Shown in pieces: positions 1,407-64,000 of a stretch of 64,000 nucleotides of DNA (position 1 is the stretch's first letter; every line of letters starts with the position of its first letter). The stretch is taken from the NCBI GenBank assembly GCA_963705105.1, contig CAVPIW010000009.1, positions 64,001 to 128,000 on the forward strand, read 5' to 3'. Below the pieces are notes generated by a model, which ran no database searches, was not told the origin of the DNA, and saw only the letters and a list, made by a program, of their open reading frames with translations. This DNA comes from an uncultured Nitrospiraceae bacterium. Lineage in GTDB: Bacteria; Nitrospirota; Thermodesulfovibrionia; Thermodesulfovibrionales; Dissulfurispiraceae. A program made the position numbers and the translations under genes.

Positions 1407-2332
1407 CACGCAAACCCCAGTTCCTTTAGAAATTGATTGTTACTTCTCCAGTCTTTTCGCATCTTGACCCAGAGAGAGAGGTGGACCTTCGCCCCCAGCA
1501 ATCCTTCGATCTCCTCGCGGGCGCTCGTCCCGATCGCCTTCAGGCGCGATCCGCCTTTGCCTATTATTATACCCTTTTGCCCTTCCCTTTCGATATAGAT
1601 ATTCGCGCCGATGAGGATGATCCCGTCCTCCCTCTCCTGCCAGGTCATGATCTCCGTCGCAATGGCGAAGGGGACCTCCTTTTCCGTCAGCTCCATCGCC
1701 TTTTCGCGGATAATCTCAGCCACCATGAACCGTTCGAGCTGGTCCGTGACGAGATCGTCGGGATAGTAGCGCGGCCCCTCGGGGAGGTATGAGACGATCG
1801 TGCCGACGAGCAGGTCGACGCCGTCTCCTGTCAGGGCCGAAAGGGGGATGATCTCCCTGAAGGCATAGAGCTTCCGGTAGGCTTCAATGACGGGAAGCAG
1901 CCTTGGCTTTTTCACCGTGTCCGCCTTGTTGATGACGAGGAAGACAGGCGAGGCGACGTCCCTGAGGAGGTCCAGGATGAGGCGATTTCCGGCTCCGGGC
2001 ATGACGGGCTCGACGAGAAAGAGGACCACGTCAACGTTTTTCATTGACTCCCGGGCCTCCTTCACCATGATCTCGCCGAGGCGGTGCAGGGGCCGGTGGA
2101 TGCCCGGCGTGTCGACAAAGATGATCTGGGCCTCCGGCAACGTCCTGATCCCGGTGATCCTCTTCCTCGTCGTCTGGGGCTTCGCGGTGACGATGGCGAT
2201 CTTCTCGCCCAGTATGGCGTTGAGCAGGGTCGATTTCCCGACGTTCGGCCTCCCGATGAGGCAGGCATAGCCGCTCCGGAAGGCCGTTTCGCCGCTGTTC
2301 GGATGATCCGATGTTTTACCTTGCGGTTGCAT
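1406..2332 (-). CDS. era: GTPase Era; probable start ATG lies in a repeat terminus
   Basis: GRPNVGKST, QTTR, DTPG, NKAD motifs and KH-domain GIIIGKGG. Confidence 0.95.
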   Translation of the reverse strand: MQPQGKTSDHPNSGETAFRSGYACLIGRPNVGKSTLLNAILGEKIAIVTAKPQTTRKRITGIRTLPEAQIIFVDTPGIHRPLHRLGEIMVKEARESMKNVDVVLFLVEPVMPGAGNRLILDLLRDVASPVFLVINKADTVKKPRLLPVIEAYRKLYAFREIIPLSALTGDGVDLLVGTIVSYLPEGPRYYPDDLVTDQLERFMVAEIIREKAMELTEKEVPFAIATEIMTWQEREDGIILIGANIYIEREGQKGIIIGKGGSRLKAIGTSAREEIEGLLGAKVHLSLWVKMRKDWRSNNQFLKELGFA

Positions 2333-2625
2333 GAAAAGGCGGGGCAAAGCGCCTCAAAGCCTCGCTGATAGCGACATTGCTTATTTCAGTCTCGGTTCTC
2401 ATCGTTCATAATCGTACGCTGTTCTGCCGTGAAGGCAGATATGGTTCAAAACCTTTCCAATGCGATGATCTTAGCGGAAAGGCTTTTCACCACATCAGCC
2501 TTCCCGCCCGCGTGTTCGTTCCTGCTATCCACTAATGACTCAATGACTGAGTGTCTTAATGACTTAATGACTGTTATGATGGCGCCTTCGCCCCGCCTTT
2601 CCCGACTGCTTAAGCAACGATGAGG
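2319..2625. mobile_element. Composite family-A MITE containing an internally deleted family-B unit (2429-2505) and AATGACT repeats
   Basis: Left CCTTGCGGTTGCATGAAAAGGCGGGG, right CCCCGCCTTTCCC...GCAACGATGAGG; no matching TSD. Confidence 0.7.
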
Positions 2626-3887: not shown

Positions 3888-4373
3888 TTATAACCCATTC
3901 CCCGACCTCCTCGCCCTGATTTTCTCGAGGGTCTCCCGGAAGTTCTCGTCTGCAGGCTTCAGTTCCGTCGCCTTCAGAGCCAGGGTCTCCGCCTCTGCGA
4001 GGTTTTCACCTTTGGTATAAAAAAGCCAGGCGAGGTTGTTGTATGCATCGGCGAGGGCAGGCCTCTCCCGGATGGCGCGGCGGTAATACGTCTCGGCGTC
4101 ATCCAGATCGCCCTTCTGAAAGGCGACGTTGCCCATGTAGAGAAAGGCCTCGGGCAGCTTCTTCGAGGCCCGGCGGTACTCCTCGAAGGCGGGATCGAGC
4201 TCGCCCTTCCTCTCATAGGCAAGGCCGAGGCTGATGTGCTCCTCCGGCGTGAGAGGGTCCTCGAGCACGATGATCCGGGGAAGGGAACAGGAGACCAGGG
4301 CACAGAAGCAAAGGAGAATCAGCATTAACCTTGAAGTTGCACGAAAAGGCGGGGGAAAGCGCCCCGCAGACAT
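3888..4373 (-). CDS. TPR-repeat lipoprotein
   Basis: Lipobox LVSC and TPR motifs (AYNNLAW); start uncertain. Confidence 0.8.
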   Translation of the reverse strand: MSAGRFPPPFRATSRLMLILLCFCALVSCSLPRIIVLEDPLTPEEHISLGLAYERKGELDPAFEEYRRASKKLPEAFLYMGNVAFQKGDLDDAETYYRRAIRERPALADAYNNLAWLFYTKGENLAEAETLALKATELKPADENFRETLEKIRARRSGNGL

Positions 4374-4381
4374 GTTCCCGA

Positions 4382-5041
4382 TCATTGAGGTCTCACCCAA
4401 AGGGTCCAGTAATCCGTCTTTTTCCACATGCCGAGGAACTCCCCTCTCTCCATATGGGCAGCCTCGTCCAGGCCGGAATGGACCATGACACCGCGGTCAT
4501 CTATGCCAAAGACGACCATGTAGTGGTGGATCCGGTAAACCGAAATCCCCCGGTCGACGAGGACGATGACGGGAAAGCGGCCGCTGATCTTCTCCCGGAG
4601 ATCGTCCCAACTCCCCCGGTAATAATCAGCCTTCAGTCCCTTCTTCCGCGCATAGATCATGAGGTCGACGTTGAGCGTGCCCCTTGCCGCGGGGCTGAAG
4701 ATGTCCGCGGCGACGGATTCGGGAGAGACAGCGACACGCCAGAACTGCAGCACGCTCGCGAGGGACGCAGGCCCGCATTGGTACTCCTCCTGGGGGAAGA
4801 AGGGGACCCCCTGGATGATGATCATCGGCGACGGAGCCTCTTGAGAAGGTTTCTGCTCCGGCAGGGCGGCGCATCCCCAGGCCGCCAGGAGCAGCAAGGC
4901 CGGAATGAACCATGCGATTGCACGAAAAGGCAAGGCAAAGCGCCTCAATGCCTTTCTGATCGCTACGCTGCAGCCGGGGGGGCAGATATGGTTCAAAGCC
5001 TTTCCGGAAGTTCTATGCGACGGTATGATGAAGGTACGCAT
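4382..5041 (-). CDS. C39-like cysteine peptidase lipoprotein (PA2778-like) with a 41-aa repeat-derived insertion
   Basis: VPFFPQEEYQCGPASLASVL, HYMVVFG, HSG motifs; lipobox AWGC. Confidence 0.85.
   Translation of the reverse strand: MRTFIIPSHRTSGKALNHICPPGCSVAIRKALRRFALPFRAIAWFIPALLLLAAWGCAALPEQKPSQEAPSPMIIIQGVPFFPQEEYQCGPASLASVLQFWRVAVSPESVAADIFSPAARGTLNVDLMIYARKKGLKADYYRGSWDDLREKISGRFPVIVLVDRGISVYRIHHYMVVFGIDDRGVMVHSGLDEAAHMERGEFLGMWKKTDYWTLWVRPQ
4910..5028. mobile_element. 119-bp family-A/B hybrid MITE with TGAA TSD, in-frame in a CDS
   Basis: TGAA at 4906-4909 and 5029-5032; both termini match the family-A TIRs. Confidence 0.8.
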
Positions 5042-5147
5042 TTTCGTGATGGTGACGGCTGTTTGGATATTCAGGACCGCAGGGCCGCCGGATTCCGTCT
5101 TATGTCCGGCGGCCCTGCGGCTGTCGTGACCGGGAGGATTTCAACAT

Positions 5148-10920: not shown

Positions 10921-10994
10921 AGAGTTGCCGTTTTTGTTTTGCGCGAGACCTCCTGAAATATATTCCTTCACTCACACTCACACCATCACTCACA

Positions 10995-11360
10995 CTAACT
11001 CTTCAGGTGCTCATGCAGGAAGGATCCGGGGATCATCCCGGCGGGAGCGGATAACAGCAGAAGCCTCTCGAAGGCCCGCTGACGGTCACGGCGGAACTCC
11101 TGTCCGCGGGCTGACTTGAGGACGACGAAATCCAGGTAGACGAACCACTCCCTGTCAGCGGCACGGAGAAAGCCGCCGCGGTAGCCCCCGGGGGAAGGCG
11201 TCGGTGGCTCCCCCTCCCAATGCTCAAGGGCATCCCAGACGGAAAGGAAACGGGGAACGATTCCCCGCATGATGACCCATTTCGGGTCCGGCCGGCTCGT
11301 GAAGAGTCTGACTCCTCCGACCCAGTCTTCACGCACGTCATTTTGTCTTGAGATGTTCAT
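10995..11360 (-). CDS. Hypothetical protein
   Basis: ORF with genome-typical GC content between repeat blocks; no recognised domain. Confidence 0.5.
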   Translation of the reverse strand: MNISRQNDVREDWVGGVRLFTSRPDPKWVIMRGIVPRFLSVWDALEHWEGEPPTPSPGGYRGGFLRAADREWFVYLDFVVLKSARGQEFRRDRQRAFERLLLLSAPAGMIPGSFLHEHLKS

Positions 11361-11424
11361 ACACAACCGTCATGCAGATGTTCTTTCTTTGCGCTCTTTG
11401 CGGCTTTGCGCGAGTCTGACTTGA

Positions 11425-30066: not shown

Positions 30067-31227
30067 TCAGAGGGAACTCGCGATCGCCTGTATGAGCCGG
30101 GCTTTCGCCGCCTCGTCATACTTGAAAAGGTCCGGAGAGGGCAGTTCGATGAGAAGGGCCGGGGTCTGCACCCGGCTCAGCATCGGCAGGGGCAGCTTCT
30201 CCTGCCGCACCGTCAGGTTGAGGTCGCGCTTGAGGTTTTGCACGATGTTGCCGGTGACCGTCGTTTCAATCCCCCTGCCCGCGGCCGTCTTCGTCTCCTG
30301 GCGCTCGTTTGCGGCCTCGCCGCCATCGCCTGCAGGCGCCGTAAAGACGACGACATCGCCCCTCCGCGAGAGATGGAGGCTGATGACCATGTCAGGCGCC
30401 GCCCTGCGCACCAACCGGATCCTCTCCTTGAGGGGGAGTCTCTGGTCTCCCTTTCGGGTCAGCTGGACGCGCTTCCCCTTTTTCGTCAGGGCCTGGGAAA
30501 GGTCTTTCGAAAGGGCAAGTACGAGGTTTTTTTCCATGAAACCCTCACCCTGGAGGCCGTGGTCGACCCCCCCGTGGCCGGCGTCGATGACGACAGTTTT
30601 CGGCGAAGGCGGCGCTTCGGGCTGCGGCGGAGCAGCGGCGGGCTTTTCCGGCTGTGCCTGCTGGGGAGGCTGGACGGGCGCCCCGGTATAGACATCGATG
30701 ACGAGCCTCGGCGGCGTCGTCAGTCTCGACACGGAATGGGTGCTCATTTGGTTAAACATGATCGTGCACCTGTCCTCGGAGGCGATGATCGTGACGCCGG
30801 GCCCCATTTCCGTCTGCACATTTTTTCCGAGGGGACCTTTCCTTTCGGTCATGAATTCGACGGGCCGCGGGAAGATGACCTGGAGAACCGGTCCTGTCAT
30901 GCGTTTGACCGACGCCTGCTGTGTCACGCTGTCGGAAGCGATGAAAACAATGCGGACGAAATCCACGTGGCGGCCCGTCCGGACGATGACACGGTTGTCC
31001 TCCTGGGCGGCGGCCCCTCCGGCAAGGAGAGCGAAAATGCAGAGCGATACTTTTACGGCATAAAAAGACGGGGCAAAGTGCCTCAACGCCTTGCCGATAG
31101 CGACATTGATCATTCTAAGTTCGTGTATCAGGATTTCGTCCTTTGTGGCATCGACCGTCTGCCTGAAATGGTCTTTATGCGAAGGCAAAGGTGTCGCAGC
31201 ACCAGGGCTATCCGGCACCTTCGCCAC
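30067..31227 (-). CDS. N-acetylmuramoyl-L-alanine amidase; 5' end overlaps a MITE, start uncertain
   Basis: PPRLVIDV (AMIN-like), VVIDAGHGG, EK, ISLH and LIE motifs. Confidence 0.85.
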   Translation of the reverse strand: MAKVPDSPGAATPLPSHKDHFRQTVDATKDEILIHELRMINVAIGKALRHFAPSFYAVKVSLCIFALLAGGAAAQEDNRVIVRTGRHVDFVRIVFIASDSVTQQASVKRMTGPVLQVIFPRPVEFMTERKGPLGKNVQTEMGPGVTIIASEDRCTIMFNQMSTHSVSRLTTPPRLVIDVYTGAPVQPPQQAQPEKPAAAPPQPEAPPSPKTVVIDAGHGGVDHGLQGEGFMEKNLVLALSKDLSQALTKKGKRVQLTRKGDQRLPLKERIRLVRRAAPDMVISLHLSRRGDVVVFTAPAGDGGEAANERQETKTAAGRGIETTVTGNIVQNLKRDLNLTVRQEKLPLPMLSRVQTPALLIELPSPDLFKYDEAAKARLIQAIASSL

Positions 31228-31258
31228 GCCTTTTGGGAGGGCTTGTGCAACAATGCGG
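31049..31258. mobile_element. Family-A MITE over the amidase 5' end
   Basis: GCATAAAAAGACGGGGCAAAGTGCCTCAA...GCCTTTTGGG..GTGCAACAATGCGG. Confidence 0.7.
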
Positions 31259-62089: not shown

Positions 62090-62879
62090 CATCCTTCTCG
62101 TCGCCCTCCTGGCGCTCTTTGCCTTTTCGCTCCTGTCTCCCCTTATCACGCCGCTGGACCCTTACGGCATCGACCTCGATGCCCTCCGACTGCCTCCTTC
62201 GCCGGAGCATCCCTTCGGCACCGACAGCAAAGGCCGGGACATCCTCTCACGGATCATCCACGGGGCCCGCATCTCGATCGGCATCGCCCTCCTTTCAGCC
62301 CTCGTCTCCGCCTCCGTCGGGTTTGCCGTCGGCCTGACATCGGGGTACTTCGGGGGGCGGTTCGACACAATAATGATGGCAGTCGTCGATTTCGTCCTCT
62401 CATTCCCGTCGCTGCTGCTCGCTGTCGCCATCTCGATCGTCCTGCCGCCGGGTCCGGCAACAGCCGTTATCGCCATAGCCGCCGTCGGGTGGACGTCCTT
62501 TGCGCGGCTCATCAGGGGATACGTGATGACCGTCAGGACCATGCCCTTCATTGAAGCGGCCCGTGCCATGGGGTGCAGCCACGCGAGGGTGCTGCTCGCC
62601 CACATCGCTCCCCTTTGCATTCCCCTGAGCCTCGTTCTCATGGGCATCAAGATCGGGGGGTTCATTCTCACCGAGGCGACCCTCAGTTTCCTGGGGCTCG
62701 GCGTGCAGCCCCCCACACCGACGTGGGGCTCCATGATCAGCGCCCACAGGGGATACCTGCTGAGCGCGCCCTGGATGGTCCTGTTCCCGGGCCTTGCCAT
62801 TTCCCTGACGGCATTCTGTTTCAACGTGATCGGCGAATCACTGCGGAAGAGGTTCGATTTCAAAGACCCGGGGGTATAG
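62073..62879 (+). CDS. Dpp/Opp ABC permease (DppC-like)
   Basis: HPFGTD..GRD, EAARAMG and LSFLGLG..P.WG motifs. Confidence 0.9.
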   Translation: MSKTGSILLVALLALFAFSLLSPLITPLDPYGIDLDALRLPPSPEHPFGTDSKGRDILSRIIHGARISIGIALLSALVSASVGFAVGLTSGYFGGRFDTIMMAVVDFVLSFPSLLLAVAISIVLPPGPATAVIAIAAVGWTSFARLIRGYVMTVRTMPFIEAARAMGCSHARVLLAHIAPLCIPLSLVLMGIKIGGFILTEATLSFLGLGVQPPTPTWGSMISAHRGYLLSAPWMVLFPGLAISLTAFCFNVIGESLRKRFDFKDPGV

Positions 62880-63017
62880 AAAAACAGTGCAAGTGTGAGT
62901 GTCAGTGTGAGTGAACAAAACAGTAAGAAAAACAGTGCAAGTGCGAGTGTCAGTGTGAGTGAACAAAACAGTAAGAAAAACAGTGATAGTGTCAGTGTCA
63001 GTGTGAGTGATAGTGAC
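62878..63017. repeat. 48-bp tandem repeat (2 full copies plus 1 partial) built on hexamers
   Basis: Units start at 62878, 62926 and 62974. Confidence 0.9.
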
Positions 63018-63133
63018 AACGAGAGGATCCATCAATCCCTATTATTGGATACGTTTTTCGGTAAGGCAAGGGCGAAGATACCTCTATAACAGTCATTCAG
63101 TCATTTGTGGATAGTCGGAACGAACACCCAGGA

Positions 63134-63301: not shown

Positions 63302-63511
63302 GGAGGCAGCGGTAGTGACACCGACACTGACACTCACACTGTCACTGTTTTTCAGAGCGCTTCGCCCCGCCTTTTCACACGCCGCTGTCCACTTGCACTC
63401 ACACTGTCACTGCCTTATTCTTTGCGCTCTTTGCGGCTTTGCGTGAGACAGTCCTGGTCTTTAAACAATTCCTTTCAATGACACTCGCACTCACACTCAC
63501 ACTGGTTCTAA

Positions 63512-64000
63512 TCAGGATACGACGATGCCGTCTTTGAGCTGGATGAGACGCTTGGCGTAGGACGCGACGGCCTGATCGTGGGTGATGACGATGACGGTCT
63601 TCCCCCGTTCGTGCATGGTGGTGAGGAGGCTCATGATCTCCGTCGCCGTTTTACTGTCGAGCTGACCTGTCGGCTCGTCGGCGAGGAGGAGGTCCGGGTC
63701 GTTGACGAGGGCGCGGGCGATGGCGACGCGCTGCTGCTGACCTCCCGAGAGCTGGTTCGGCTTGAACTTCTTTCTGTCGCCGAGGCCCACGAGTTCGAGG
63801 AGTTCGAGGGCCCGTTTCTCCGCGCTGTCCCGCTTCTTGTCCATGTAGAGCGTCGGCAGGAGGACGTTTTCGAGGACCGTCGCGTAGGGCAGCAGGTAGA
63901 AATTCTGGAAGACGAAGCCGATGTGCTCGTTCCGTATCACCGAGAGCTCGTCGTCCGACAGATGGGAGACTTCTTTCCCTGCGAGGACGTACCGGCCCGA
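63512..64000 (-). CDS. LolD/MacB-type ABC ATP-binding protein; 5' end outside the window
   Basis: IGFVFQ.F.LL, LSGGQQQRVAIARAL and ADEPTG motifs. Confidence 0.9.
   Translation of the reverse strand, partial: SGRYVLAGKEVSHLSDDELSVIRNEHIGFVFQNFYLLPYATVLENVLLPTLYMDKKRDSAEKRALELLELVGLGDRKKFKPNQLSGGQQQRVAIARALVNDPDLLLADEPTGQLDSKTATEIMSLLTTMHERGKTVIVITHDQAVASYAKRLIQLKDGIVVS

Follow-up and report, generated by a model that had tools for sequence, protein, structure and literature searches.

In-frame fusions of MITEs to genes are not unusual according to PMC10969869, which names the Rickettsia palindromic elements (RPE; Ogata et al, 2000, as cited in PMC10969869 and PMC2229807) as the extreme case, with nearly half of the elements of three families lying in ORFs. 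For the Neisseria Correia repeats, PMC2229807 describes a 107-bp short form that is open and fused to ORFs and a long form that contains stops and is intergenic, together with ORF fusions of ERIC/RU-1. In Yersinia, RU-2 (YPAL) makes up the first 30 residues of the predicted signal peptide of YPO1552 (Delihas 2007, PMC2759123). Claims that bacterial repeats yield new protein sequence mostly rest on single-genome annotation. The locus described here is an instance of this known phenomenon (RPE; Yersinia RU-2) in a new MITE family, a new host and by a new route, and the history of its frame rescue is unusually readable: the target duplication, the parent subfamily, a unique joint, the remnant in a second allele and a directional change of the end codons can all be followed in the sequence. 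No new biochemical system is revealed, and the added peptide would be cleaved off.

The window, a 64,000-nucleotide stretch of the genome of an uncultured Nitrospiraceae bacterium (Nitrospirota, Dissulfurispiraceae), carries the insertion four codons into a lipoprotein gene (Table 1). The insert comprises 119 bp and the 4-bp TGAA duplication, together 123 bp or 41 codons without a stop; the TGAA repeat of this site extends by one base, to ATGAA. When the 123 bp (4910-5032, or any equivalent register) are taken out of the minus-strand ORF, MRTFIPALLLLAAWGC results, as the first-pass annotation had predicted, and the filled ORF is stop-free over 219 aa with the N-terminus given there. The claim at the core of that annotation, a MITE with a 4-bp target duplication inside signal-peptide codons and with the frame left open, is borne out by the borders, the duplication and the ORF. 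The left-end family profile scores 37.7 at 4906-4944, and in reversed-genome controls a single match exceeded 18. The right end fails its profile (score −7.3) because its core is deleted; the right border is based on an 11/16 match to the terminal consensus, judged by eye, plus the duplication. BLAST finds bases 5006-5032 nowhere else in the genome. Contigs of four public runs, each from a different study (X1 to X4, with X1 possibly being the source sample), were compared with the junctions: those of X1, X2, and X4 bridge the left one and those of X1, X2, and X3 the right one, so the insertion is not an assembly artefact. An X2 contig has 48 unplaced bases before 4998, which is consistent with a longer remnant. 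Rfam has no match in the window.

Table 1. Features of the focal locus and of related element insertions in the window (positions are those of the window).
Feature	Position	Strand	Basis
Complete 307-bp MITE upstream of era; outward ATG (2330-2332, minus) is the nearest in-frame start for era	2319..2625	+	Locus and ortholog comparison
Solitary left end of a MITE, located 5′ in the TPR lipoprotein gene (minus strand, 3888-4427)	4329..4363	+	Profile, interval screen
219-aa C39-type cysteine-peptidase lipoprotein gene, PA2778-like	4382..5041	-	ORF; NF033920, PF13529, PF03412 matches; orthologs
Host h-region and putative lipobox (FIPALLLLAAWGC; Cys57)	4871..4909	-	Sequence; Cys at the corresponding place in most orthologs
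TGAA target duplication, left copy	4906..4909	+	Sequence, family duplication statistics
119-bp MITE remnant: left end, internal modules, terminal 31 bp of right end	4910..5028	+	Profile, duplication, family comparison
MITE left end; minus-strand reading ends ...LPFRAIAW directly before host h-region	4910..4944	+	Profile score 37.7; hydrophobicity rank
Alternative start: TTG at codon 37, in frame and within the element, preceded by GAGG (4943-4946) at a distance of 9 nt	4931..4933	-	-5.6 kcal/mol; TTG there in 4/599 left ends
8-bp microhomology GCCTTTCC at inferred in-place deletion joint, right end/internal module	4998..5005	+	Joint at 1/144 module sites
TGAA target duplication, right copy	5029..5032	+	Sequence, family duplication statistics
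Original ATG	5039..5041	-	No Shine-Dalgarno match, -1.5 kcal/mol
211-bp MITE, complete, at the amidase 5′ end, with a minus-strand ATG in its interior (31111-31113)	31048..31258	+	Locus and allele comparison

The interrupted gene is the middle one of a three-gene cluster (PA2779-family, C39, TPR). Its product matches NF033920 (E 2e-33) over model positions 2-144 of 255 with 115.7 bits, which is under the cut-off of 150, and the TPR gene covers the remaining part of the model (164-255). By these matches, the C39 and TPR genes are a putative split form related to the PA2778 family, and a non-member by the cut-off. Orthologs of the C39 gene were found in 38 of 60 GTDB relatives, at 39-55% identity; the N-termini of the orthologs vary freely, and the insert peptide was present in none of the 28 ortholog N-termini examined. 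The body of the gene is undamaged, including the catalytic QCG motif. Ahead of the h-region, the predicted protein has eight Lys or Arg and no acidic residue, and the h-region leads into AWGC, which we take to be the lipobox. A Tat motif was ruled out for the Arg-Arg pair of the insert, since the neighbouring residues, Leu and Phe, do not suit one. Between the PA2779-family and C39 genes, at 5076-5124, lies a strong single-copy hairpin that is unrelated to the MITE.

Profile search of the genome recovered 599 left and 554 right ends that belong to a single family. CCTT-NNN-GTTGCA opens either end, and the two have in common the GC-rich core AAAGGCGGGGC, the right copy of which is deleted in the focal element. 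There are 408 complete copies of less than 700 bp, with a mode at 211-213 bp and a dominant 212-bp class (94 copies), and the repeat intervals, 817 in number, account for 3.8% of the genome. A target duplication of exactly 4 bp flanks 135 of the 408 complete copies, compared with 15.7 in shuffled pairings, and 119 of the 234 clean-ended ones, compared with 14.3; at the same border, other duplication lengths occur at background level. The commonest duplication words are TTAA, TTTA, TAAA, and TGAA. With terminal inverted repeats, a duplication of fixed length, short size, many copies and no transposase of its own, the family is a bacterial MITE.

An autonomous partner with matching ends was not found in this genome, which is 99.4% complete. 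PF13701 is absent from it; PF01609 has 15 matches, of which the IS1634-like one is nested inside a MITE and has ends of its own, and the repeated IS ends of the genome differ from those of the MITE. Two kinds of candidate for an autonomous element were rejected: a 2355-bp end pair with a 565-aa transposase is the IS1634-like element nested in a MITE, and four other long end pairs enclose host genes. Scanning the wider genome contigs for the end pattern gave at least 80 matches, each single and apparently due to chance, and viral contigs gave none. The pattern occurs 280 times in this genome versus once in one of 60 relatives, and weak matches were seen in four of 300 genomes of the class. The family is close to lineage-specific. 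In two of these four genomes, G004 and G198, the matches resemble related left ends by eye; these diverged left-end-like sequences (L285 and L290 in G004, L286 in G198) have no visible transposase within 1.5 kb. A full-text search, with most subscription journals outside its scope, returned no published account of this repeat or of Nitrospirota MITEs.

Several other repeats accompany the family. The IS1634-like element is 1953 bp long and present in four full copies and one partial copy (C10:241130-243082 and four other sites), of which one is nested inside a MITE and one adjoins a MITE end. A 1375-bp element (C10:130207-131581 and elsewhere) yields ∼46 grouped copies or fragments in self-comparison. 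Tandem repeats of 6-8 bp (CAGTGT, AGTCATTG, and TAGACAG types) occur in MITE interiors (10962-11002, 11380-11414, 62878-63021, and 63313-63517), and a separate CTTTGCG-type repeat stands beside some MITE copies.

The first-pass annotation treated the 119 bp as an element in its own right that had arrived exactly in frame. Its borders hold, as does the open frame; the element itself does not, being an internally deleted remnant of a subfamily of 295-400 bp. The left 96 bp of the focal copy match 21 complete copies, of which 18 measure 306-364 bp, and the right terminus is joined directly to an internal module at an 8-bp word common to both places. This internal joint is unique, occurring at one of the 144 module sites in the genome, and therefore the deletion that shaped the focal copy was most likely an in-place event. 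In the focal phase, not one of 41 parent-type copies reads through. Taken with the unique joint, this makes it most likely that the frame was not kept on arrival but was regained by a later deletion. Random deletions of parent-type copies give an open frame in 1,693 of 16,400 cases (10%), whereas the exact 8-bp microhomology deletion does so in 10 of 37 parents, so that the chance figure for the focal allele is nearer to 25% than to 10%. The 3′ two-thirds of the insert (GKALNHIC...KALRRF) are open in most parents and family members, and their openness alone is therefore no sign of selection. The last four codons of the focal copy read AIAW as opposed to the ATER, ATGR, or ATAR usual in the family. 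Among the 599 left ends, AIAW ranks first in hydrophobicity on the Wimley-White scale and 12th on the Kyte-Doolittle scale, and the last eight element codons rank fifth (post hoc tests). The shift extends the h-region, which favours translation of at least these last eight codons.

At 90% identity, the protein cluster of the focal product has two further members, P0121 and P0122. In P0122 (234 aa), the start-proximal and left-end residues are as in the focal protein, and the middle is longer by 15 residues that match the right-end region of the full element; this remnant spans 56 codons and is open from the upstream start. The focal and P0122 remnants each hold sequence that is missing in the other, and therefore go back to separate deletions or conversions. 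P0121 (HWR89708.1; 184 aa) is without the insert, begins MRIIPIPKLLIPALL, and shares the IIP codons. Over the mature part, 161-164 of 174 residues of the focal protein match those of the two others; P0121 is identical to P0122 at 171 of 174 positions and to the focal genome at 161 of 174. As P0121 and the insert-bearing P0122 resemble each other more than either resembles the focal genome, loss in P0121 is the simpler reading, and the comparison points to a secondary loss of the element by P0121, which is known from its protein alone. The two insert-bearing alleles are likewise known as proteins, from gene callers that favour the longest frame, by which frameshifted alleles could be missed.

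The empty allele that had been predicted to begin MRTFIPALL was not found, and the short relative has the P0121 N-terminus instead. The empty-site joint occurs in none of the four runs (whose contigs show presence, not absence). The 60 GTDB relatives are too distant for an empty allele to be recognized (39-55% identity), and a metagenome scan returned only relatives at 56% or less. Nor did the proposed search of proteomes for the insert peptide extend the finding: among cluster representatives of 120-384 aa it returned only the query itself, and at 50% clustering two representatives, of which one is an ORF reading through a MITE and the other is of low complexity.

Where translation begins decides how much of the insert becomes protein. 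The stretch from the element to the lipobox is free of ATG and GTG codons; any exported product must therefore begin within or ahead of the element. In the preferred reading, which we hold to be about as probable as not, the remnant forms an extended basic front of the signal peptide, translated from the original ATG. According to it, a copy of 295-400 bp would have been moved in trans by a DDE-type transposase into the AT-rich TGAA site, where it would have broken read-through; a deletion between two copies of the 8-bp word would then have cut the element to 119 bp and restored the frame, and the sister lineage would have reached an open frame through a different deletion. Substitutions would last have made the final element codons hydrophobic and lengthened the h-region. 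Signal peptidase II would cut off the extra residues and the mature lipoprotein would stay as it was, which would explain why they are tolerated. In favour of translation from the ATG are the two different remnants, in the focal gene and in P0122, that are both open; the unique joint (1/144) next to parents none of which reads through (0/41) and random deletions of which only 10% are open; the hydrophobic ranks of AIAW; the intact gene body; and the bridging of the junctions in public runs. Against it, the ATG lacks a Shine-Dalgarno match, and its energy of −1.5 kcal/mol is weaker than that of 90% of 1,069 confident starts. Counted from this ATG, Cys57 lies past the 95th percentile (47) of the lipobox position in homologs, the median of which is 26.5 (84 scored of 119 homologs, with two at position 58 or beyond). 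The long form is moreover dispensable, as P0121 has no insert peptide, and the higher chance figure of ∼25% from exact microhomology deletion makes the open frame less telling.

The in-frame TTG with its better ribosome-binding match also speaks against the ATG. If translation restarted at this TTG (codon 37), with the GAGG of the element as ribosome-binding site, the signal peptide would be 21 residues long and contain only eight element codons, and the open frame upstream would be incidental. We hold this to be possible but rather unlikely. A TTG at this place is found in four of 599 left ends and needs two changes in the best-conserved core; GAGG stands 9 nt upstream (−5.6 kcal/mol), and 21 residues are an ordinary length for a signal peptide. 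P0122 also has Leu at the corresponding position, as far as its protein sequence tells, the hydrophobic shift of the element end fits a restart equally well, and the starts of bioD, rlmB, era, and the amidase gene likewise seem to come from element ends. TTG starts are weak, though, and a restart does not account for the fact that both remnants, different as they are, can be read through from the upstream start; selection on the peptide, and not on a start codon, may lie behind the Pro-to-Leu change. That the TTG falls within a predicted stem weighs little, the stem not being strong (z −0.6). The two starts could also have acted in turn.

It is unlikely that the locus is a neutral wreck, that is, a gene poorly expressed or with an unexported product, whose open frame and hydrophobic drift came about by chance. 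Family members have most of this frame open in any case, and among ∼600 left ends some extreme ranks are expected, but the mature part is without a lesion in three alleles. Moreover, few element ends adjoin an h-region in frame, and the end with the extreme hydrophobic rank is one of them. In addition, there were no disrupting insertions in gene interiors among the 408 complete copies (311 of 400 control sites being detected by the test), and therefore broken genes are usually purged. Least probable is that the ancestral N-terminus was nearer to that of P0121 than to MRTFIPALL. The right TGAA and the IIP codons would then belong to the host, and a deletion spanning the right border would have reset the frame. 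P0121 does have the IIP codons and no insert, and the right terminus is the most decayed part of the focal copy. That terminus is, however, still in register with the family terminus and has the expected 4-bp duplication behind it, and the closeness of P0121 to the insert-bearing P0122 makes loss of the element simpler.

With translation from the original ATG as the preferred reading, the focal copy resembles an RPE in that a small multicopy repeat lies in frame within a coding gene, to which it contributes a foreign peptide of comparable length. The first-pass annotation had drawn this parallel, and as to frequency it was overstated: a screen for ORF-spanning copies found one deep in-gene copy among the 817 repeat intervals, unlike the RPE with nearly half in ORFs in three families, and the focal copy is in frame by way of a deletion. 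The MITE further differs from the RPE in having terminal inverted repeats and a 4-bp TNNA-type duplication, the two being set apart by description and not by sequence. Region 4895-5075 folds no better than its shuffles (z −0.60), that is, it forms no stable palindromic hairpin. With both the frequency and the hairpin test failing, the focal MITE is not an RPE. The likeness to Yersinia RU-2 is that a MITE lies in a signal peptide, in both cases by prediction only; distant homologs of YPO1552 have unrelated signal peptides. RU-2 forms the gene start, whereas the focal copy splits a pre-existing lipoprotein signal peptide. At the focal locus, target duplication, allelic remnants and end remodelling are visible, and family and phylum are others. 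As with Correia and ERIC, a shorter, internally deleted form is open and fused to an ORF; the Correia short form is, however, a propagated subfamily, and the 119-bp form is a single in-place derivative.

Genome-wide, the gene calls were made with a dicodon model (2,910 genes used, ∼74% of the genome covered, starts placed roughly). The test for empty sites flagged 4 of the 408 complete copies, all at junctions between genes, and no gene-splitting copy; target words lie in gene interiors in 47% of cases. On control sites, this test has a sensitivity of 311/400, and it missed the copy that is closest to the RPE in this genome. In a GT9 heptosyltransferase-like gene, a complete 206-bp MITE and its 4-bp duplication lengthen the inter-domain linker by 70 codons in frame (C17:40934-41139); the linker is 107 residues long compared with 32-46 in seven usable orthologs (nine loci, of which one was not extracted and one was a wrong ORF). 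This 70-codon copy is directly comparable to an RPE, and in the GT9 gene as in the focal gene, the in-frame insert peptide is missing in orthologs, as it is for RPE. As to copy lengths divisible by three, for which a test had been suggested, the 184 of 408 copies that fit (copy length plus 4) reflect the dominant 212-bp class of 94 copies.

Copies hug gene borders, and 58 called genes stop in or at a MITE copy; the target word is often the stop codon itself in these. The first-pass annotation had also suggested a repeat-driven route to new N-termini, with related events at era, the TPR gene, and the amidase gene. For the amidase gene and era this holds, with ATGs in the element; at the TPR gene, the ATG follows the element end. 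Orthologs of era start within five codons of the FRSG motif in 14 of 16 cases, as does one cluster member. In this genome, no ATG, GTG, or TTG is present at the usual start, and the nearest is the ATG in the MITE end; era thus appears from its sequence to be a case of start capture, not of in-frame insertion. In the amidase gene, the ATG nearest ahead of the h-region is in the element, and the frame is kept in all four alleles despite in-frame length differences. In bioD, a 265-bp MITE sits out of frame in codons 2-3 (C6:860037-860301) and strands the native ribosome-binding site and ATG upstream, with GTG and TTG of the element end in frame. The empty site has the ribosome-binding site followed by MAKGIF, a start shared with 10 of 13 orthologs; by this comparison, the filled gene presumably has only the element's end to start in. 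A MITE at codons 2-3 of rlmB (C6 near 106184) offers an element ATG that gives MQLKD-; the empty site has GGAGGG and an in-frame TTG, now stranded upstream, and three alleles are called from the element ATG. Insertion at ATG-AAn or GTG-AAn leaves a GTG made of the terminal G and the duplicated bases, as in a rimO-like gene and a glycosyltransferase gene.

The phase of the ends relative to the downstream gene is nevertheless flat (left 84/74/74, right 82/72/66), and among reconstructed empty sites with an upstream ATG within four codons, the gene frame is not enriched (9 versus 14 and 6). Because these enrichment tests are negative or weak, the start-capture cases are individual examples without statistical excess. 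The route from element end to gene start is real but rare, at about ten loci by our estimate. Signal peptides and gene starts are a tolerant entry point for mobile DNA, and annotators should be warned that gene callers often extend starts into the MITE in this genome. A broader view remains doubtful: that gene starts in this lineage have been systematically rebuilt by a MITE without transposase, the preferred target of which overlaps with start codons and stop codons (ATG-AAn, TAA, TGA). Its termini would regenerate or supply start codons (bioD, rlmB, era, rimO, amidase), its left-end frame would give basic n-regions to signal peptides, the focal copy would be a case of domestication still under way (with two deletions that restored the frame independently and an end remodelled towards hydrophobicity), and the element's ends would be partly pre-adapted to harmlessness at gene starts.

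Insertions at the start codon with a TGAA target, leaving a GTG of this make-up, were seen at C18:5581, C5:218779, C6:243995, and C6:506851. At C6:243995, the terminal base is A, which gives ATG; here two alleles moreover have an open frame through all 212 bp of the copy. DUF3187, TolB, and di-heme secreted proteins apparently have the front of their signal peptide from a MITE end (C14:293437, C14:200166, and C6:828327); TolB of this genome has Leu at the position where the start Met stands in three relatives.
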